In this document: positions 15,807 to 46,500 of the stretch, piece after piece | How positions within the stretch are numbered: the stretch's first letter is position 1 | Layout: the number at the start of each line of letters is the position of its first letter | Source of the DNA: a virus | DNA: 64,000 nt | Strand: one strand, 5' to 3' | IMG/VR virus record: IMGVR_UViG_3300023179_000089 | Span: 1-64,000 of that record | The notes under the pieces: model-generated | What the model was told of the DNA's origin: nothing | Seen by the model: only the letters and a program-made list of their open reading frames with translations | The model's database searches: none | Program-made: the position numbers and the translations under genes

Positions 15807-15912
15807 ATTGATTATTAATCGATTACGCAACTAATTGATAATTAATGTATTAAAATTGCCAAAAAATTTGGTGCGTGTAGATGAATTACTTATTTTTATG
15901 TATAGTAATTAA
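15807..15912 (+). promoter_or_regulatory. early promoter cassette copy 1
   Basis: ATTGA boxes, GATTACGCAAC, CCAAA-TTTGG, CTTATTTTTATGTATAGTAATTAA. Confidence 0.8.
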
Positions 15913-15919
15913 TTAATCA

Positions 15920-16210
15920 ATGAAAGAAAGTACCCAAAACCAGGCAATGACAAATTTAGTTTACAATGCAGTTGAATGTTTTATTTCAAGTGCGTATTTA
16001 TATGAACGTCGTGACACGGAATTTGAGATAGATCAAAGATGGCATAATGCATACGCTGCTGAATGTGAATTGTATGCGCATTTACGTGCGATGTCTGAAT
16101 CGGAAAAAGAAACTTATACTAAGTTTGTTAATTGGCTTGAATACAGTCAATTGTATAAATCGGATTTGACAGTAAACAAACTTTATTCCGTATTTAAATC
16201 TATTAAATAA
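15920..16210 (+). CDS. hypothetical protein
   Basis: directly after the promoter cassette. Confidence 0.7.
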   Translation: MKESTQNQAMTNLVYNAVECFISSAYLYERRDTEFEIDQRWHNAYAAECELYAHLRAMSESEKETYTKFVNWLEYSQLYKSDLTVNKLYSVFKSIK

Positions 16211-16225
16211 TAAAACCGATTCGAA

Positions 16226-16438
16226 ATGACAACAGTAGATAAAAAATCCAACAAAATACCTCAAGGAGCATTTTCAGAAATGATGTCTGCTTTTGTTTAT
16301 TTTGACAAAGTAGATGAAGGATGCGGGTACGATAGATTAAATGCTAAAATGCGAATAATACAAATGAATTATGACCTAACCGATAATGAGTTAGGTATAG
16401 TCGAAAAATGGGCTTATGAAAAGTATTACAAAAACTAG
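16226..16438 (+). CDS. hypothetical protein
   Basis: ORF in operon. Confidence 0.6.
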   Translation: MTTVDKKSNKIPQGAFSEMMSAFVYFDKVDEGCGYDRLNAKMRIIQMNYDLTDNELGIVEKWAYEKYYKN

Positions 16439-16507
16439 AGCTGGAAACGCAAAAGAGCAAATTATCAATTTAAAGGCAAAAGTAAATAATAAAACCGAGA
16501 TAAAATC

Positions 16508-16897
16508 ATGAAAATTTTCTTAGACGATGTAAGAATACCAAGCGATTGTATTGGATATATGTATACTAGAATTGGATCATTGAATCCGATTTATTTAGAA
16601 AATTGGACTATTGTAAGAAATTACAATGAATTCGTAGATGTTGTAACAAATAACATTACGGAAATCACGCATATTTCTTTCGACCACGATTTAGCAGATG
16701 AGCATTACGATCCTGCAATGTATCATGGCACGGAAAAGTATATGGAGTTAGCTGGAAAGTTTAAAGAAAAAACTGGGCTAGATTGCGCGATATGGTTAAA
16801 CGAATTTTATTTATCAGCTGGTAAATCTTTGCCGATCATGTTTGTTCATTCAATGAATCCTGTCGGAACTAAAAATATAATAGACGTTTTTAAATAA
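16508..16897 (+). CDS. cyclic-phosphate-processing receiver-like domain protein
   Basis: KIFLDDVR, ISFDHDL, TGLDCA, VHSMNPVG motifs. Confidence 0.75.
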   Translation: MKIFLDDVRIPSDCIGYMYTRIGSLNPIYLENWTIVRNYNEFVDVVTNNITEITHISFDHDLADEHYDPAMYHGTEKYMELAGKFKEKTGLDCAIWLNEFYLSAGKSLPIMFVHSMNPVGTKNIIDVFK

Positions 16898-16898
16898 A

Positions 16899-17081
16899 AT
16901 GAAAATAGTAGTAAAAAGAAACGAACAACAACCTGAAGTTACAATTGACTTAAAAGATGTGCATTATCCTTATGCTATTAGAGATGCAATTCAATTAGCA
17001 TTAGAAATTGATGGTTTTACAAAAGAAACTATTGCAGAGGTGTTTAATCAAATGCCCGATGCTAAATGTGAGGCATCATAG
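16899..17081 (+). CDS. hypothetical protein (upstream of attC-like site)
   Basis: 60-aa ORF. Confidence 0.6.
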   Translation: MKIVVKRNEQQPEVTIDLKDVHYPYAIRDAIQLALEIDGFTKETIAEVFNQMPDAKCEAS

Positions 17082-17087
17082 CATTGC

Positions 17088-17184
17088 ACCTAACGATTGG
17101 GTATATATGCAGTACCCAATGCAGAAACTTTAAAATTAAATATAAACCTTAATAGGGTATTGCATATATACCTTGTTATACCAC
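17088..17184 (+). mobile_element. attC-like recombination site
   Basis: ACCTAAC (RYYYAAC) ... 18-bp inverted repeat with one mismatch (17100-17117 / 17155-17172) ... GTTATAC. Confidence 0.65.
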
Positions 17185-17192
17185 GTAAACTT

Positions 17193-17513
17193 ATGAAAAG
17201 AAATATAAGCGAAACCCCCGAAAGATGGGTGATATTAAAACTACCAAACAATTACTATAAAGTTTTTGGAACTTGGGCTGGTGGATATTTAGATGGTGAT
17301 AGATGGAAGTTGAACTCTGGAATAGAAAAAATTGAACAGGATGACGATTACTATTATTTTATTGGATTTAGTGGGAGTTGTTATAAATGTCACAAAAAGG
17401 GATATGGAATATCAACATCCTACGGGCTATTGGTACTGAATAAAATAATAGAACAAGGGAATAGTCAGATTGAACTAATGGAAGATTGTGATGATTGGTC
17501 AACAGTGGTATAA
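17193..17513 (+). CDS. hypothetical cassette-borne protein
   Basis: start at ATG 17193 just after GTTATACCAC; stop lies inside GTGGTATAAC. Confidence 0.75.
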   Translation: MKRNISETPERWVILKLPNNYYKVFGTWAGGYLDGDRWKLNSGIEKIEQDDDYYYFIGFSGSCYKCHKKGYGISTSYGLLVLNKIIEQGNSQIELMEDCDDWSTVV

Positions 17514-17815
17514 CTATTATATATACGCAACCCGATTGGTTAACTAACCGAATCAATACTTCAAATTGAAAACGTATAAAGTGTTGTAAACGCGCGTTTA
17601 TCGTCTATTTTACTAGTAACTAGCAGAAGTGTCGACGCGTAAATGGATGAATATATACTATTACTCTTATTACTTTGGCAGAATAGTATCGGTGTAGTAC
17701 GGTAGGTGTACGTAGGTGTAGAACGGGTAGGATGGATAGGCTAGAAAAGACCCGTTCATACACCGCCTCGAGAAAGTTTTTTGCATATAGACCAGACGCC
17801 GCGAAAGATTTATCA

Positions 17816-17921
17816 ATTGCTACTCAATAGGTTACGTAACCAATTAATTGTCAATGCATTAGATCGATCGATCGATTTGGTTCTTCAACGCAAATCACTT
17901 ATCTTTATGTATAGTAATTAA
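17816..17921 (+). promoter_or_regulatory. early promoter cassette copy 2
   Basis: GGTTACGTAACC palindrome, TTTGG, CTTATCTTTATGTATAGTAATTAA. Confidence 0.8.
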
Positions 17922-17928
17922 TTAAAAA

Positions 17929-18087
17929 ATGACTCGTAAATTGAATTCAGTAGAGCAAGTGTTATTTAAAGCCACTTACAACTTTCATCGCGAATTAGGT
18001 GACTCGGATCAAATAGCTCTGGAAAAAGCTCATCTTAAAATTGCTTCAAAGCGTCGGTTAAGCGCAAGTTGTTCTTTTAAATATTAA
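17929..18087 (+). CDS. hypothetical 52-aa protein (not in ORF track)
   Basis: MTRKLNSVEQ...; directly after the promoter. Confidence 0.65.
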   Translation: MTRKLNSVEQVLFKATYNFHRELGDSDQIALEKAHLKIASKRRLSASCSFKY

Positions 18088-18112
18088 AAAACAATCGCAA
18101 GCTTGCGCTCTT

Positions 18113-18229
18113 GTACGTACAGAACTGAATGATTTTGTTGAGTGTAGTGTACGGCGGTGTACGGGGAATGTACATCAATAGTATTGTCATTCAGGTCGTT
18201 CACGTACGTACAGAACTGAATGATTTTGT
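18113..18229 (+). repeat. 26-bp direct repeat pair with a 65-nt spacer
   Basis: GTACGTACAGAACTGAATGATTTTGT at 18113-18138 and 18204-18229. Confidence 0.9.
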
Positions 18230-18262
18230 GTATAGCTAGGTTGTTTCAGTAAAAACAAGCTC

Positions 18263-18368
18263 CTTGAGTATTAATAGGTTACGTAACCAATTAATTTTCA
18301 ATGAAATAAATTCACCAAATTATTTGGTACATGTAGATGAATTACTTATTTTTATGTATAGTAATTAA
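18263..18368 (+). promoter_or_regulatory. early promoter cassette copy 3 (drives the tRNA-like array)
   Basis: full motif; followed by boxA-like AGTTCATTGAAA rather than an ATG. Confidence 0.8.
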
Positions 18369-18399
18369 TTAATTACTAAAAGTTCATTGAAAGAAATTT

Positions 18400-18472
18400 A
18401 GTCAGGTGGCAGATTGGGATGCAGGTTGCCCGAAACGGTCGCTCTATACAGGTTCGAATCCTGTCCTGACTA
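18400..18472 (+). ncRNA. tRNA-like RNA 1 (degenerate anticodon arm)
   Basis: AGTCAGG/CCTGACT acceptor stem plus A discriminator, ACAGG-TTCGAAT-CCTGT T-arm; weak anticodon stem without U33. Confidence 0.75.
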
Positions 18473-18489
18473 CTAAAATAAATAAAGTT

Positions 18490-18591
18490 ATGAAAAATGA
18501 AAAATGGTGGAATGGTTTCCTATTAGGACTTTTTATCGGGGGTATACTTGGTATAGTTATACTTGATTTAGTTCAAAGAGGAATACTATAA
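18490..18591 (+). CDS. 33-aa single-TM peptide between tRNA-like RNAs 1 and 2
   Basis: MKNEKWWNGFLLGLFIGGILGIVIL...; A-rich leader. Confidence 0.55.
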   Translation: MKNEKWWNGFLLGLFIGGILGIVILDLVQRGIL

Positions 18592-18595
18592 ATTT

Positions 18596-18701
18596 AGTCA
18601 GGTGGCGGAATGGTAGACGCTCATAGTCGGATTGAATGAATTGGGGGACGATCCTCCAACCACGGAGTGCCCAAATACAGGTTCGAATCCTGTCCTGACT
18701 A
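18596..18701 (+). ncRNA. tRNA-like RNA 2 (anticodon region replaced by multiple hairpins)
   Basis: same acceptor stem and T-arm; Leu-type D-arm GGCGGAATGGTAGACGC; internal TTGGGGGA/TCCTCCAA stem. Confidence 0.75.
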
Positions 18702-18704
18702 CAA

Positions 18705-18994
18705 TGAGTAAGAGATACTCAGCAGACTTGCCAATGTCTCATTTAAACTTGGTAGGGTATTGGACTGGACATCCTTAAACGCCAGTCTCAGTGGGAATAA
18801 AGGCAGGTAGCAGAGCCTCCCAGTAGCTTGACTAATTTTATGAGGGATGCCTCGCAGGTTTATTGAAAGCAAGAAAACCGAAATAACTACTCACCAGTAA
18901 TCTCAAGGTGGGGTCTGTAATGATAAAAAACAAAGGGCAGGGCGCAAAGACACTGAACAACGGGAGAGGCTGAGGAACTTCCATTATCATTACA
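18705..18994 (+). ncRNA. candidate structured RNA(s) between tRNA-like RNAs 2 and 3
   Basis: GC-richer, no long ORF; stems TGAGTA/TACTCA, GCAGACTT/GGGTCTGT, GACTGG/CCAGTC, TGAGG/CCTCG, CACC/GGTG, TGTAATGATAA/TTATCATTACA. Confidence 0.55.
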
Positions 18995-20762: not shown

Positions 20763-20765
20763 TGC

Positions 20766-20844
20766 ATTGAGTATCAATGTAATTAATTTACCTAAATATT
20801 TGGTAGTTTAAAACGATATACTTATCTTTATGTATAGTAATTAA
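20766..20844 (+). promoter_or_regulatory. early promoter cassette copy 5 (short)
   Basis: ATTGAGTATCAAT...TTTGG...CTTATCTTTATGTATAGTAATTAA. Confidence 0.8.
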
Positions 20845-20855
20845 TTAATCAATAA

Positions 20856-25516: not shown

Positions 25517-25594
25517 TTGATTTTTAATAGAAATAACTTACCAAATTATTTGTTTCATTGAAATTGATTACTTATTTTTATGTATAGTAATTAA
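25489..25594 (+). promoter_or_regulatory. early promoter cassette copy 7
   Basis: AGGTTACGTAAC...CTTATTTTTATGTATAGTAATTAA. Confidence 0.8.
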
Positions 25595-25603
25595 ATAATA
25601 AAA

Positions 25604-26334: not shown

Positions 26335-26920
26335 CTTTACATTTCTAAAAGCATTTTTCAGTCCATTTGTAAGACCTAAAATTCGTTTATACATTGGTAA
26401 AACAGCCATAGGTACACCTTACTTTTTTCCTAGAAGATGGGTTAAAGCAACTCCAGAATTAGCCCATAAAGCTGTTGAGGATTACATTAAGCGTGAAGAA
26501 AATTACAACAAAGCGAATCCTAATTATGCTCGTAAAATAAAACCATATAATGAAGTTTATCAAGAAAAATTAAGGTATGAATATGCAATACCTAAAAAAA
26601 TAGGTTTTGATTTTGTTGATTTAGGTTGGAAAACTAAATGGAAAGAAACAGATTATAGATTTGAATGGAATCCAGTATGGTCATTTGTATTTTTTGGTTA
26701 TCAAATAGCTCTTACATTTACACCTGTAGAATCAAGTCATTATTGGGAAGCATGGTTATATTATACTAGAAATACAGACAAGTCTAAATCTACAAAAGAA
26801 AGATTAATAGATTGTATGAGCAATTTTTCATTAACATACACATCTTACCCAAGCGAAAAAGAAATAGATTATTATAAACATATACTTAAAAACAAATGGA
26901 AAAATTCAATGACAGAATAG
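26324..26920 (+). CDS. hypothetical protein, paralog of 23620-24204
   Basis: extensive shared motifs. Confidence 0.8.
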   Translation: MRNNFTFLKAFFSPFVRPKIRLYIGKTAIGTPYFFPRRWVKATPELAHKAVEDYIKREENYNKANPNYARKIKPYNEVYQEKLRYEYAIPKKIGFDFVDLGWKTKWKETDYRFEWNPVWSFVFFGYQIALTFTPVESSHYWEAWLYYTRNTDKSKSTKERLIDCMSNFSLTYTSYPSEKEIDYYKHILKNKWKNSMTE

Positions 26921-27300: not shown

Positions 27301-27391
27301 ATTATATAACTAATTGATAATTAATTCAATTAATTTACCAAAGAATTTGTTTCGTGTAGATGAATTACTTATCTTTATGTATAGTAATTAA
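27301..27391 (+). promoter_or_regulatory. early promoter cassette copy 8
   Basis: TAACTAATTGA...TTTACCAAA...TTTG...CTTATCTTTATGTATAGTAATTAA. Confidence 0.8.
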
Positions 27392-27399
27392 TAAAAAAA

Positions 27400-27681
27400 A
27401 TGATTAGATCAACAAGCAACAAAGGGTTCTCCCTTACTTTTGAAAATGGTTGGACAATTTCAGTTCAATTTGGTTATGGTAACTATTGCGATAACAAACA
27501 TCATCCCGATGGATGGGACTTTAGCAAAAAACAAGAAGTAACTCAATCTTCTGATGCTGAAATTGCAATTTGGGATGCTAATGGAGAGTGGTATAATTTT
27601 GATTCAGATACCGTTAAAGGATATTGTTCTGCCAATGAAGTAGCTGAATGGATTACAAAAGTATCTAAATTTAAACCTTAG
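27400..27681 (+). CDS. hypothetical protein (related to 32598-32915)
   Basis: KGFSLTFENGWTISVQFG...AEIA. Confidence 0.75.
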   Translation: MIRSTSNKGFSLTFENGWTISVQFGYGNYCDNKHHPDGWDFSKKQEVTQSSDAEIAIWDANGEWYNFDSDTVKGYCSANEVAEWITKVSKFKP

Positions 27682-28963: not shown

Positions 28964-31042
28964 ATGTCTAAACAGTATTCAAAATACGATTCATACAAAT
29001 ATCAACCCGTAAACAAGAAATATCAAAATTCTTCTTTTTGGCTTGGAAATGACTTTCTTGAAGGCCAAACTCAAATTAAACATGATATTATAAAATTAGC
29101 AGCGTATAAACGAGCAATATCTAACTTTGTACGAATAGTAACCAATCGCAGTGACATCAAAGTTTCATACTCGTCAGGACAACAATCTTACACTGACGGT
29201 AAAGCCGTTGTAATTTCATCGAAAATTTCCGACGGCGAATTTGATTGTACTGTCGGCTTAGCTTTACATGAAGGCAGTCATATTGCGTTAACTGATTTTC
29301 AATTTTTGAAAACTGCATTTAAGTTTACACAGTATGATAGACAAACCGAATTCGGTGCATTTATGTTAGATAATTTACATTATATAAAAGAATTAACTAA
29401 TATTATTGAAGACCGAAGAATAGACTATTACGTATACACGCAATCTCCAGGATATCGAGGTTATTACAATTCGCTTTACGATACATACTTTAATAGTAAA
29501 GAAATTGACATAGCATTAAAAACTAATTTAAAAACTTCAGGATCAATTGACGATTATATATTTCATATCTGCAACTTTGCAAATTCTAATCGACAACTCG
29601 ATTCAATGCCCGGGCTTCGCGAAATATGGGAATGTATAAATTTACCAAACATAAAACGTTTAAATTCTACATCAGAAGTATTTTCAATAGCTTGCGATGT
29701 AATGAAATTAATTTTAAAACATCAAAACACCGAATCTTCAAATCAAGAAACAACTCAATCTGAAAGCTTAGAGAAAGTTAAACTAAATCAAAATTATAAC
29801 GAGCATGAAGATCCAAATTTAGATACGTCAAATTATAATAACACTGAAATTAGTAGTAATGATGATTCAAATCCAATAGATTCGCAATCAAATTCATTGA
29901 ATTCGAATCTTTCAGATAAAGAGCAAAAGAAGCATGACAAACTATTAAATAGTCTAGAAAAAGCAATTAATCGACAAAAAGAATTTCTCAACGGAAATGT
30001 TAAAAAGAGTAAACTTTCAGCTGCTGAAAATGCAAAAGTTAACGCTGCAGCTGAATCTTCTATTTCTATAGAAAATGTCGGAGGATCGGTCATTAATGAA
30101 CAAAAAGACGGATCTAAGAAAGAAATAAACAAAGGTACCGCACAATGCATTGTAATTCGTGGTATTACGCAATCAGGAATAGATAGTAATTTATATGGAT
30201 GCAATTACAGGCCAGAAGAAAAGAATTACAATCCAATTTCTGAAGGTATTGCTTTAGGAACTATGTTAGGAAAGAGATTGAAAACGCGAGATGAAAATCG
30301 AACTTTAACTAGTACTCGAGCAGAACATGGTCGTATTGATCGACGTCTGTTAGCCGAACTAGGTTTTGGGAATGACCGCGTTTTTCAAAATACCACTCAT
30401 TATCAAGTAACGCCTGGTTTAGTACATATTTCTATTGACGGGTCTGGATCAATGTCAGGTAGCAAATGGGACGCTGCAATTAAATCAACTATCGCAATTT
30501 GTAAAGCGGCTACGATGATTTCTTCAATTAACGTAATTGTATCTGTAAGATCAACTATACATTACGGTTCACAATTTCAGCCGCTGATGTGGATAGTTTA
30601 TGACTCTAGAAAAGATAAATTGGTTACGTTTTGTAAACACGCAGCGAATTTAATTCCGGCCGGGTCTACGCCTGAAGGATTATGCTTTCAATCAATTACA
30701 TCTGAAATTATAAAAGATTCTAATGGGAAAGCTGCATTTTTTATTAATCTATCTGACGGAGAACCGTCATTTGTAAATAACCGAATAAATTATAACGGAA
30801 CCTATGCACTATTACATACAAAAAATCAAGTTGATAGTTTAAGAAAACATAACATTCACGTTCAATCTTATTTTATATATAACAAGTATCGAGATGATTG
30901 GTCAATATCCGATTTCGCGCAAACTTCTTCAGCTAACAATTTTCGTACAATGTATGGGTCTGACTCAAAATTTATTGACGTAACTAATCTATCGCATTTA
31001 GCAAATTCATTAAATGATTTGTTTGTGCGCGGAATTGAATAA
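28964..31042 (+). CDS. VWA-domain protein with an N-terminal HExxH domain (MoxR partner, CobT-like)
   Basis: ALHEGSH, NIIEDRRID, GRIDRR, MIDAS DGSGS, LSDGEP. Confidence 0.85.
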   Translation: MSKQYSKYDSYKYQPVNKKYQNSSFWLGNDFLEGQTQIKHDIIKLAAYKRAISNFVRIVTNRSDIKVSYSSGQQSYTDGKAVVISSKISDGEFDCTVGLALHEGSHIALTDFQFLKTAFKFTQYDRQTEFGAFMLDNLHYIKELTNIIEDRRIDYYVYTQSPGYRGYYNSLYDTYFNSKEIDIALKTNLKTSGSIDDYIFHICNFANSNRQLDSMPGLREIWECINLPNIKRLNSTSEVFSIACDVMKLILKHQNTESSNQETTQSESLEKVKLNQNYNEHEDPNLDTSNYNNTEISSNDDSNPIDSQSNSLNSNLSDKEQKKHDKLLNSLEKAINRQKEFLNGNVKKSKLSAAENAKVNAAAESSISIENVGGSVINEQKDGSKKEINKGTAQCIVIRGITQSGIDSNLYGCNYRPEEKNYNPISEGIALGTMLGKRLKTRDENRTLTSTRAEHGRIDRRLLAELGFGNDRVFQNTTHYQVTPGLVHISIDGSGSMSGSKWDAAIKSTIAICKAATMISSINVIVSVRSTIHYGSQFQPLMWIVYDSRKDKLVTFCKHAANLIPAGSTPEGLCFQSITSEIIKDSNGKAAFFINLSDGEPSFVNNRINYNGTYALLHTKNQVDSLRKHNIHVQSYFIYNKYRDDWSISDFAQTSSANNFRTMYGSDSKFIDVTNLSHLANSLNDLFVRGIE

Positions 31043-31527: not shown

Positions 31528-31529
31528 AT

Positions 31530-31619
31530 TTATATAACTAATTGATATTCAATGTAATTAATTTACCAAAAAATTTGGTTCGTGTAGAACAATTACTTAT
31601 TTTTATGTATAGTAATTAA
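31530..31619 (+). promoter_or_regulatory. early promoter cassette copy 9
   Basis: ATTGATATTCAAT, ACCAAA-N3-TTTGGT, CTTATTTTTATGTATAGTAATTAA. Confidence 0.8.
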
Positions 31620-31628
31620 ATAATAAAA

Positions 31629-34003: not shown

Positions 34004-34390
34004 GGGGGCGAATGGTATAGATTGACAGAATAGTTCTTTGAGATGATGCACGCAGTGCTAGTATTGGAAGCACTTAAATATCCTATATAACGAATAACTG
34101 GAAACGAAATCTCTGATTTCACTTACGAAGACGCTATGGCGTTCGTAAGCGGCGAATATGCTTTAGCAGCTTAATTGCCAACGGGTCGGCGCACATATAA
34201 CCTAGGAACAGAAGTGAATGGATTGGTGAAAAAACAATTGAACCTTAAATCGAATTGTCCATTGGTTGTTAGTTTACGATGGCTGAAGAACAAACTAAAT
34301 ATTTTGAGTCGTTAGAAAATGACATCTAAGCGTGTGAATGAGTCCTTAAATTGTCTGGGCAAGACGAGGGTTCGACTCCCTCCGCCTCCA
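34004..34390 (+). ncRNA. ssrA: tmRNA
   Basis: GGGGGCG/CGCCTCC-A acceptor stem with G3.U70, T-arm GAGGG-TTCGACT-CCCTC, tag ORF 34100-34174 GNEISDFTYEDAMAFVSGEYALAA*. Confidence 0.92.
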
Positions 34391-34428
34391 CTAATTCACG
34401 GAGTATTAACCTTTAAATTGAATCGAAT

Positions 34429-42954: not shown

Positions 42955-43040
42955 ATAACTAATTGACTTTCAATTGAAAAAGTTTACCAAATAATTTGGT
43001 ACTTTGGCAAATAAATACTATTTTTATGTATAGTAATTAA
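42955..43040 (+). promoter_or_regulatory. early promoter cassette copy 10
   Basis: ATTGACTTTCAAT, ACCAAA-N3-TTTGGT, TATTTTTATGTATAGTAATTAA. Confidence 0.8.
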
Positions 43041-43045
43041 AAAAT

Positions 43046-45768: not shown

Positions 45769-45843
45769 CGCGGGATGGACTGGAGATGGTACCAGCTCGG
45801 TCTCATAAGCCGAACGACGTAGGTTCGAATCCTACTCCCGCTA
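45769..45843 (+). tRNA. tRNA-Met(CAT), initiator-like
   Basis: C1.U72 mismatch, GCGGGA/TCCCGC, TCGGT-CTCATAA-GCCGA, GTAGG-TTCGAAT-CCTAC. Confidence 0.88.
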
Positions 45844-45871
45844 CTAAATGCGATCGTTTTTCTTAAATCAA

Positions 45872-46365: not shown

Positions 46366-46383
46366 TTTTAGATAATTTTTCTA

Positions 46384-46489
46384 ATTGATATACAAATAGT
46401 TACGTAACCTGTTGGTAGTCAATAGATAAAACTAACCAAATAATTTGGTTAGTATTAACTAATCTCTTATTTTTATGTATAGTAATTAA
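46384..46489 (+). promoter_or_regulatory. early promoter cassette copy 11
   Basis: GTTACGTAAC, AACCAAA-N3-TTTGGTT, CTTATTTTTATGTATAGTAATTAA. Confidence 0.8.
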
Positions 46490-46500
46490 ATAATTAAAAA

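Follow-up and report, generated by a model that had tools for sequence, protein, structure and literature searches.

A probable single-gene cassette in a phage genome and the integron-like, recombinase-linked arrays of its relatives

Results and Discussion

A Candidate Gene Cassette in a Phage Genome

The stretch of DNA analyzed here, referred to as the window, comprises the first 64 kb of the 72,562-bp IMG/VR record IMGVR_UViG_3300023179_000089, a phage record with 32% G+C, a completeness of 41% by CheckV, and genes almost all on the + strand. In this window a hairpin-forming sequence separates two small genes, named gene A and gene B. The segment 17095–17513, which spans the hairpin and gene B, probably represents one gene cassette from a gene-capture platform of integron-like type that phages carry. 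A preliminary description of the window had proposed an integron-type cassette with attC-like sites, and this proposal gained support from a covariance-model match of the hairpin, from the statistics of the short boxes flanking the genes, and from the reshuffling of cassettes between relatives.

In relatives, the intact platform consists of a short Xer/IntI-like tyrosine recombinase, an attI-like site before its gene, and an array of small open reading frames (ORFs) further upstream. Each ORF of such an array is preceded by a site in which TAAC is followed by a one-sided loop of 4–5 nt, by a hairpin that covaries and measures about 45, 88, or 125 nt, and by GTTA. Presumably, the + strand folds as single-stranded DNA such that TAAC(G) pairs with (T)GTTA, and the recombinase would exchange strands in or beside the TAAC core, the exact cleavage position being a prediction. 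Cassettes may leave as circles, in which the 3' box of the gene and the box after GTTA would rebuild one fully paired site, and may re-enter at the attI-like TAAC beside the recombinase gene.

Table 1. Features of the cassette locus and associated elements. Positions refer to the window unless another locus is named.
Feature	Position	Strand	Remarks
Gene A, 60 aa	16899..17081	+	TAG stop 17079–17081
Left box TGCACC and invariant core TAAC	17086..17095	+	Proposed crossover core; ACCTAAC at 17089–17095
Medium-class attC-like site, 100 nt	17085..17184	+	About 88 nt core to core; covariance-model match, alignment, covariation, DNA fold
GTTATACCAC, core GTTA and right box TACCAC	17175..17184	+	5' end of the cassette's own putative half-site
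Gene B, putative cassette cargo, 106 aa	17193..17513	+	No family or fold match
GTGGTATAAC, left box GTGGTA and core TAAC	17505..17514	+	Putative cassette 3' end; TAA stop 17511–17513 inside
attI-like sequence TAACTATTATATATACGCAAC	17511..17531	+	Conserved across recombinase loci
Decayed 5' stub of a recombinase gene	17566..17616	+	TTG start; in-frame stops 17587–17589 and 17614–17616
Recurrent intergenic block	15830–15915, 17880–17928, 20763–20855, 25517–25603, 27301–27399, 31528–31628, 42955–43045, 46366–46500
Long-class site over ORF start, L004	6319–6444
Long-class site over ORF start, L012	6313–6438
Long-class site over ORF start, L036	3670–3795
Long-class sites over ORF starts, G001	26487–26612, 27492–27617		Reverse complement

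The motifs named in the preliminary description, i.e., ACCTAAC, an 18-nt repeat, two 10-mers, TATACG/CGTATA (17522–17527 and 17573–17578), and GTTGTAA (17583–17589), are all present. From 5' to 3' the site is built of TAAC, a one-sided internal loop of 4 nt, a hairpin of about 20 bp, and GTTA, with TAACG and TGTTA forming the closing helix. The stem arms, 17100–17117 and 17156–17173, pair over 18 nt with a single mismatch, which is a G·T wobble on the + strand; the inverted repeat can be extended to 21 nt at 90%, and the loop of 38 nt is A/T-rich. The ATG of gene B at 17193 follows position 17184 by 9 nt, or the site by 15 nt according to our other count. At its end, gene B carries GTGGTATAAC, the exact reverse complement (10 of 10 nt) of 17175–17184; this 3' copy is coding and reads N-V-V-stop. 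The left box TGCACC is part of the unit upstream and lacks complementarity to the right box of the same hairpin. Gene A, which has no match in Pfam, PHROG, or NCBIfam, ends together with the 14 nt after it in TAGCATTGCACCTAAC, a motif typical of the 3' ends of cassettes and backbones, and the same 16 nt close the last unit before the attI-like site in locus L293. Upstream of gene A, no site with a right box complementary to TGCACCTAAC was found above chance.

When the 60 nt upstream of gene B were shuffled, a reverse-complement match of at least 10 nt to the gene end arose in 6 of 20,000 trials, and just two of 117 crude ORFs of the genome reach a repeat of 10 nt. In 303,821 bases, comprising the genome and 24 related loci, the 10-mer is confined to both ends of gene B. 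Both copies recur in six further loci of the 80 scored (L001, L004, L005, L008, L013, and L030). Distant homologs of gene B (about 40–60% identity) have no 5'/3' inverted repeat of their own; it is a property of the close subclade, always with the identical 10-mer. That TAAC after stop codons might be a habit of the whole record was rejected, as it is found at 9 of 118 genes. The window by itself would not have decided the case.

A Family of Structured Sites

Related sites were collected with a scanner that demands TAAC, 3–7 nt, a stem of at least 9 pairs with at most one mismatch, 0–3 nt, and GTTA. The sites fall into three size classes of about 45–53, 75–93, and 111–139 nt. The exact short-class pattern occurs in at least 120 stretches in IMG/VR, and 68 distinct instances among the matches listed show stems that covary around constant cores and a constant loop. 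For the medium class, to which the site of the window belongs, an alignment (A3) was built from 49 sites of relatives, without the window and without a near-twin of its hairpin that lies inside a recombinase-linked array in L288. TAAC and GTTA are invariant in all 49 sequences, the stems covary, and the loops vary. The consensus comprises 25 pairs, 15 of them with compensatory changes. Paired cells amount to 99.3% vs 78.6% in shuffles and the covariation score to 0.561 vs 0.163, values that none of 500 shuffles reached in either case; the paired percentage is inflated, since the detector pre-selected well-paired stems, which leaves the compensatory changes unaffected.

The covariance model R1, derived from A3, matches 17085–17184 on the + strand with 88.5 bits (E 9e-17) and the − strand with 36.9 bits. 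Scanning the 64 kb with R1 revealed no second convincing site (next best 18.9 bits), and the entire 72.5-kb record holds just this one.

Two features may mark the strand, namely the one-sided internal loop of 4–5 nt and G·T wobbles at four positions, with the G always on the 5' arm (in 47, 37, 29, and 48 of the 49 sequences); the consensus stem is free of bulged bases. Thus, the − strand would have A·C mismatches at these positions. Folding with DNA parameters gave −13.6 kcal/mol for the + vs −13.1 for the − strand in the window, and −17.2 vs −11.7 in L243.

Long-class sites reach into the next ORF, as their 3' arm and GTTA fall among its first 20 or so codons. The start codon is inside the site as well, GTT of the GTTA core codes for Val, and ORFs with unrelated bodies begin with similar leaders. 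A captured ORF may receive its translation start signals and a leader peptide from such a site.

Neither a sigma-70-promoter-like nor a terminator-like site was found on the + strand in 17082–17192, and a recurrent promoter-like block found elsewhere in the window (see below) is absent there. Likewise, an intrinsic terminator, i.e., a G+C-rich stem with a T run, did not appear at the site in our scan; canonical terminators are present elsewhere in the record. An RNA family of Rfam was also discarded as an assignment, the best match scoring 25.2 bits against a gathering score of 90.8.

Recombinase-Linked Arrays in Relatives

As noted in the preliminary description, the window lacks an integrase: PF00589 has no match in the window or in the record. 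A tyrosine recombinase was found at the arrays of relatives. In G001, the record holding locus L030, the array ends at a recombinase of 267 aa with PF00589 and PF13495. Its best NCBIfam match is NF040815, "tyrosine recombinase/integron integrase", with 180.6 bits (cut-off 220), and the integron-integrase models TIGR02249 and NF011946 yield 153.6 bits (cut-off 265) and 99.3 bits (cut-off 435), respectively. The nearest solved relatives are XerA (4A8E, E 1.4e-31), VchIntIA (2A3V, E 1.6e-26), and XerD (3.6e-24). In the alignment to VchIntIA, 31 residues of the recombinase face 79, and hence the IntI-specific segment of about 48 residues is absent. The nearest recombinases in INPHARED are 36–40% identical.

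IMG/VR contains at least 210 relatives of this recombinase. We examined 79 of the best 80 loci (60–87% identity), leaving out L227, which is G001's own locus; several are duplicates, such that unique sites or junctions number 258–260. These loci carry 299 sites on the recombinase strand vs 7 on the other. The same-strand sites are located almost entirely in the 6 kb upstream of the recombinase (294, with 5 in the 6 kb downstream), and they become denser toward the gene, where there is about one in every 500 bp. At least one site is present in 51 of the 54 loci that have at least 1.5 kb of upstream sequence, the maximum being 12 per 6 kb. The array maps read site, ORF, site, ORF, and so on up to the recombinase. 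The sites begin a few nucleotides past stop codons, most ORFs are singletons of 40–150 aa, and downstream of the recombinase the backbones are mutually unrelated. The same site family thereby bounds hundreds of ORFs, which answers the question, raised in the preliminary description, whether similar hairpins bound other ORFs. An attI-like block, x6-TAAC followed by a conserved A/T-rich stretch, is located about 55–60 nt upstream of the recombinase start in nearly all loci. Among the matches listed, eight contigs are common to the short-class pattern and the recombinase.

Bacterial relatives of the recombinase (41–51% identity; 80 loci, L313–L392) belong mostly to Bacteroidota and include Flavobacterium, Arundinibacter, Algoriphagus, Nitrospirae, and Desulfitobacterium. 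In 23 of the 80 loci sites were found, 40 on the opposite strand and downstream of the gene vs 1 on the same strand. Three of five bacterial recombinases tested reach the cut-off of NF040815 and none that of TIGR02249.

Sites also occur in the 93-kb record G002 (loci L308–L312; CheckV 100%), which carries 23 of them on one strand between 69,020 and 92,241. Short-class sites are present in cultured flavobacterial phages, namely the Polaribacter phages P12002L and P12002S and the Tenacibaculum phage JQ, plus two very large uncultured phages. In P12002L (L307, 5981–7720), they bound the methyltransferase genes gp36 and gp35, and the boxes of gp35, GTTAGGCAC and GTGCCTAAC, are complementary.

Complementary Gene Ends and Reshuffling of Cassettes

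To compare boxes across the arrays, the 6 nt beyond GTTA were paired with the 6 nt that precede TAAC in the following site (gene-flanking boxes), and the same was done for the two boxes that flank a hairpin. Gene-flanking boxes are complementary at a mean of 4.53 of 6 positions (n = 132; 52 perfect, 87 with at least 5), and 81 of the 105 pairs less than 700 nt apart reach at least 5 of 6. Hairpin-flanking boxes reach a mean of 2.33 (n = 260, none perfect), compared to 2.31 for random pairs. In the window, the gene-flanking boxes match at 6 of 6 positions. Complementarity of the gene-flanking boxes is the signature of integron cassettes; from an RNA hairpin or a simple homology linker one would expect the reverse. 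As it extends across the relatives, the 10-mer repeat of the window is an instance of a family-wide property, and the earlier claim of complementary cassette ends holds beyond the window.

The arrays are reshuffled between relatives. Loci L240, L254, and L255 have a common recombinase and a near-identical downstream backbone and carry the same cassettes in differing order; the unit c25-c26-c27 is next to the recombinase in L254 and L255 and at an internal position in L240. Of 16 junction pairs sharing the upstream cassette and differing in the downstream one, 12 lose identity after the first 4–5 nt of the site. Counts of alignment ends (high-scoring segment pairs) are partly informative, as conserved sites themselves end alignments. 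On the breakpoint data, we assign the main crossover to TAAC(G) or its immediate vicinity.

Gene B as a Wandering Single-Gene Unit

The product of gene B is a member of a large and conserved phage family of small proteins, with 416 clusters at 90% identity and 1401 representatives at 50% identity (E ≤ 0.001). Its AlphaFold2 model has a predicted local distance difference test score of 94.8. No usable match was found in Pfam, PHROGs, NCBIfam, a PDB sequence search, the ESM Atlas, or Foldseek against PDB.

Relatives at 75–91% identity are encoded at 24 IMG/VR loci in at least 10 unrelated gene neighborhoods. In 15 of these loci, DNA homology to the window stops at 17514–17515, one base past the stop codon of gene B; the left end of homology is variable, ranging from 17076 to 17196. 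As with the junction pairs described above, homology between relatives breaks off at the TAAC core, so that the refutation envisaged in the preliminary description, breakpoints unrelated to the sites, did not materialize.

Pairwise comparisons reveal exchanges at the same position. L012 differs from L023 by one additional gene of 353 bp exactly after gene B, with TATAAC on both sides. L007 and L008 are 98.7% identical, yet the segment starting directly after GTGGTATAAC is replaced. The motif TAACG.TT recurs 1–31 nt past gene stops in L030 and L036. In one contig of run X5, gene B extends to 17514 and is followed by the start of a different site instead of the attI-like block. The sequence occurs in metagenomes from lake, estuary, and freshwater sources (11 studies); a blastn search of 15900–18900 against the INPHARED phages returned no match.

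A Probable One-Cassette Remnant in the Window

The sequence following gene B had been taken for a degenerate second attC site. It corresponds instead to the attI-like sequence conserved in relatives, followed by the decayed remainder of a recombinase gene. Positions 17511–17531 are 100% identical over 21–22 nt to the attI-like block of L235 and L281, and blastn aligns 17509–17591 at 70–74% identity over 76–88 nt to the attI-like region and the first recombinase codons of L239 and L283. The end point of the stub (17616) was placed by eye; beyond it there is no similarity. An ORF at 28964–31042 (692 aa) was discarded as a recombinase: its likeness to the array recombinases in tblastn is weak (25% over 230 aa, E 0.002), and PF00589 does not match it.

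Judged by this layout, the window looks like a one-cassette fossil, i.e., a backbone gene, one inserted cassette, an attI-like site, and a dead recombinase gene. Such an order speaks for entry of the cassette at the attI-like TAAC. With the recombinase decayed to a stub, the gene B cassette is probably fixed now, unless a recombinase acts in trans.

Weighing of the Evidence

Several observations weigh against the cassette reading. Nine junction pairs share the downstream cassette and differ in the upstream one; in three of them identity continues across the entire site, in four it ends inside, and in two it ends at GTTA. A 1-nt spacer marker goes with the upstream cassette in L240, L254, and L255, and the hairpin subtype of gene B differs between the window and L001/L004. 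Hairpin types are common to unrelated cassettes, 1036 of 1092 similar pairs sharing neither flank; as they are so generic, a test of hairpin travel (10 downstream-only vs 1 upstream-only) was not relied on. The hairpin would, by its position, belong to the gene downstream of it, a point on which the junction data are not clean, and it seems to be exchanged itself as well. Assigned to the downstream gene, it places the ORF on the strand equivalent to the integron bottom strand. Neither a circular cassette nor an excision joint for 17095–17513 was found in the Logan contigs of public runs, where the joints listed lie elsewhere, which is not evidence of absence. The 72.5-kb record, being 41% complete, has a single site and no PF00589 recombinase, such that activity in the window phage is unsupported, and G002 has no tyrosine recombinase in its record either, so that sites persist there without an enzyme in cis. 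Finally, the identity of the P12002L attC site recombined by IntI1 in an earlier study (PMC9892861) with a short-class site is unconfirmed, as far as the accessible part of that article goes.

Three other explanations have to be considered. The 10-nt repeat might be coincidental and the sharp edge of homology due to selection on a conserved coding sequence within mosaic phage genomes. A second gene of the record carries a 10-nt repeat of the same kind, distant gene B homologs have none, and the 3' copy is coding, as would be expected by coincidence. The second repeat is an A/T run, however, shuffling rarely reproduces a 10-nt match, the C following the stop codon is preserved across unrelated contexts, and neither the design common to 87 of 132 gene-flanking pairs nor the covariance-model match would follow from chance; we regard coincidence as extremely improbable. 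More can be said for hairpins acting as RNA elements of polycistronic early transcripts, in processing, stability, or translational coupling, with boundaries arising from short homologies and ordinary recombination and with the recombinase being a phage integrase or dimer resolvase that stands at the block end by chance. Each of the 299 sites lies on the coding strand, as the genes do, and the sites start a few nucleotides after stop codons; the conserved wobbles fit RNA (G·U) equally well, and the shared strand and the wobbles also weigh against the cassette. The + strand folds better than the − strand. Furthermore, the 3' arm of the long class covers the start region of the next ORF, and G002 keeps its 23 sites without a tyrosine recombinase. 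Such elements would nevertheless predict complementary boxes around the hairpin, where the pairing is at the random level, and not around the gene. The medium and short classes leave the next start codon uncovered, as with the ATG in the window. A conserved attI-like sequence with the same TAAC core lies directly before the recombinase gene, and sites are nearly absent from the 6 kb downstream of it across very different backbones. An RNA function as the full explanation is therefore unlikely in our view.

The third explanation invokes shuffling as by promoter early stem-loop (PeSL) elements, where repeated intergenic regulatory cassettes allow ORFs to be exchanged through homology or microhomology by general recombination, with no site-specific step. 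The likeness of hairpins between unrelated cassettes fits this well, as do the breakpoints inside the hairpin or at GTTA in six of the nine same-downstream pairs. The indel between L012 and L023 is bounded by a 6-nt direct repeat, which fits a microhomology deletion too, and there is precedent in T4-type phages, as described in the accessible parts of two reports (PMC2839356, PMC4122927). Homologous exchange within hairpins gives no complementary gene-flanking boxes, though, and leaves unexplained both the 12 of 16 breakpoints exactly after TAAC(G) and the one-sided, one-strand arrays next to a conserved recombinase and attI-like site; nor is there a promoter-like site in 17082–17192. We rate general recombination of this kind as improbable, about on a par with the RNA explanation, and retain the integron-like cassette as the preferred reading.

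Comparison with Known Systems

In integrons, as in the phage arrays, a tyrosine recombinase stands beside a primary site, followed by a one-sided array of mostly single small ORFs. Several features of attC sites recur in the phage sites, i.e., imperfect palindromes, invariant AAC...GTT triplets, and variable, covarying stems. Cassette ends are complementary halves of one site in both, and cassette order is reshuffled between relatives. The folded sites are asymmetric between strands, and arrays of one orientation lie beside recombinase and attI-like site in the phage relatives, the window having the attI-like sequence and the stub only. In the frame of the site, the phage recombinase gene and the attI-like site occupy the places of intI and attI in the classical layout, and the + strand corresponds to the attC bottom strand.

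Differences are equally clear. The phage recombinase has 267 aa, lacks the IntI-specific domain, and stays below the integron-integrase cut-offs. The ORFs of integron cassettes read away from the integrase, from the Pc promoter on the top strand, whereas the ORFs of the phage cassettes point to the recombinase gene, share its direction, and lie on the equivalent of the attC bottom strand. Asymmetry of the phage sites results from the one-sided loop and the G·T wobbles, and no bulged stem bases were seen. In addition, some phage sites overlap the first 20 or so codons of an ORF, and the platform is carried by phages. The platform would thus work like an integron and yet depart from it in two defining features, the IntI-specific domain and the orientation of the ORFs. 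With the short Xer/IntI-like recombinase of the relatives, the platform is not a canonical integron, a point on which the preliminary description needs correction.

To our knowledge, scattered attC clusters and a few borrowed bacterial integrons are all that has been reported from phages. According to the accessible part of Qi et al. 2023 (PMC9892861), attC clusters without IntI occur in virulent phages, 21 phages having been identified by applying IntegronFinder and HattCI to sequenced genomes. For P12002L, a cluster of two attC sites holding two methyltransferase genes was predicted there, and IntI1 recombined one of these sites, on the bottom strand only. Our data agree with these clusters in that attC-type sites occur without IntI and that P12002L also carries short-class sites; Xer and a phage recombinase with attI and array are not mentioned in that part of the article. 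An attC-site cluster without an integron-integrase (CALIN) comprises at least two sites by default in IntegronFinder 2 (accessible part of PMC9024848), and the window record, with one site and no recombinase, represents a single-site case. The same source gives a single complete integron in Bacteroidetes for IntegronFinder 2.0.

A PeSL combines an early promoter with a terminator-like stem-loop and is thought to act by homologous recombination. The phage sites described here differ in that no promoter was found at them, the gene-flanking boxes are complementary, and next to the arrays stands a dedicated recombinase with its attI-like site. In common with the PeSLs of T4-type phages, as far as the available text of PMC2839356 and PMC4122927 goes, they are structured intergenic repeats that delimit small accessory ORFs in hyperplastic regions and coincide with the edges of insertions, deletions, and replacements. 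In the Xer/dif systems, dif-type sites are short duplexes with two arms around a spacer of 6–8 bp. The phage recombinase is closest in sequence to XerA, XerC, and XerD, whereas the phage cores lie 40–120 nt apart, are joined by a hairpin, and form arrays of up to 12 per 6 kb.

In our literature search, which found the phage attC clusters and in which subscription journals were mostly outside coverage, no published phage platform of this kind, composed of recombinase, attI, and array, came up.

Other Features of the Window

The gene two positions upstream of the cassette (16508–16897) matches PF20274 (cREC_REC, a cyclic-phosphate processing receiver domain; E 2.5e-18) and phrog_1479. A transfer-messenger RNA gene and two tRNA genes (Ser-cga and Met-cat) are located at 34004–34391, 18400–18473, and 45769–45844, respectively. 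Past the recombinase stub, a long non-coding stretch around a 52-aa ORF and the tRNA-Ser gene holds two pairs of direct repeats of 28–33 nt (17826–17854/18264–18300 and 18106–18138/18197–18229), one of which contains the palindrome GGTTACGTAACC. Stretches of 26–32 nt near 18446–18705 recur in L009, L012, L016, and L017 at 96–100% identity.

The recurrent intergenic block of Table 1 is composed of a palindromic TTTACCAAA..TTTGG part followed by TTACTTAT.TTTATGTATAGTAATTAA. We take it to resemble promoters of the Bacteroidota −33/−7 type, and it suggests a Bacteroidota host.

Conclusions

Integrons are the textbook system of gene capture in bacteria. Our data point to a dedicated integron-like platform of phages, with a recombinase family of its own and arrays of unique small ORFs. 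The platform is widespread in phages and apparently also in Bacteroidota. On balance, we lean slightly toward regarding it as a second integron lineage, independent of IntI and common in phages of Bacteroidota-type hosts, which would employ an Xer-like recombinase with its own attI and folded single-strand sites whose strand is marked by the one-sided loop and G·T wobbles rather than by extrahelical bases. It would occupy up to a quarter of a phage genome, as with the 23 sites in 24 kb of G002, and have bacterial relatives with the same array in inverted geometry. The platform may represent the missing integron of phyla nearly devoid of canonical integrons, or a relative of the ancestor of IntI and attC.

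If active, it would provide a concrete mechanism by which phages gain, lose, and reorder accessory genes, likely including counter-defense genes such as the methyltransferases of P12002L. Recombination of cassettes at folded sites would then be possible without the IntI-specific domain, which bears on the origin of integrons and of attC. The thousands of cassette ORFs marked by these sites constitute a catalog of mobile accessory genes of phages.

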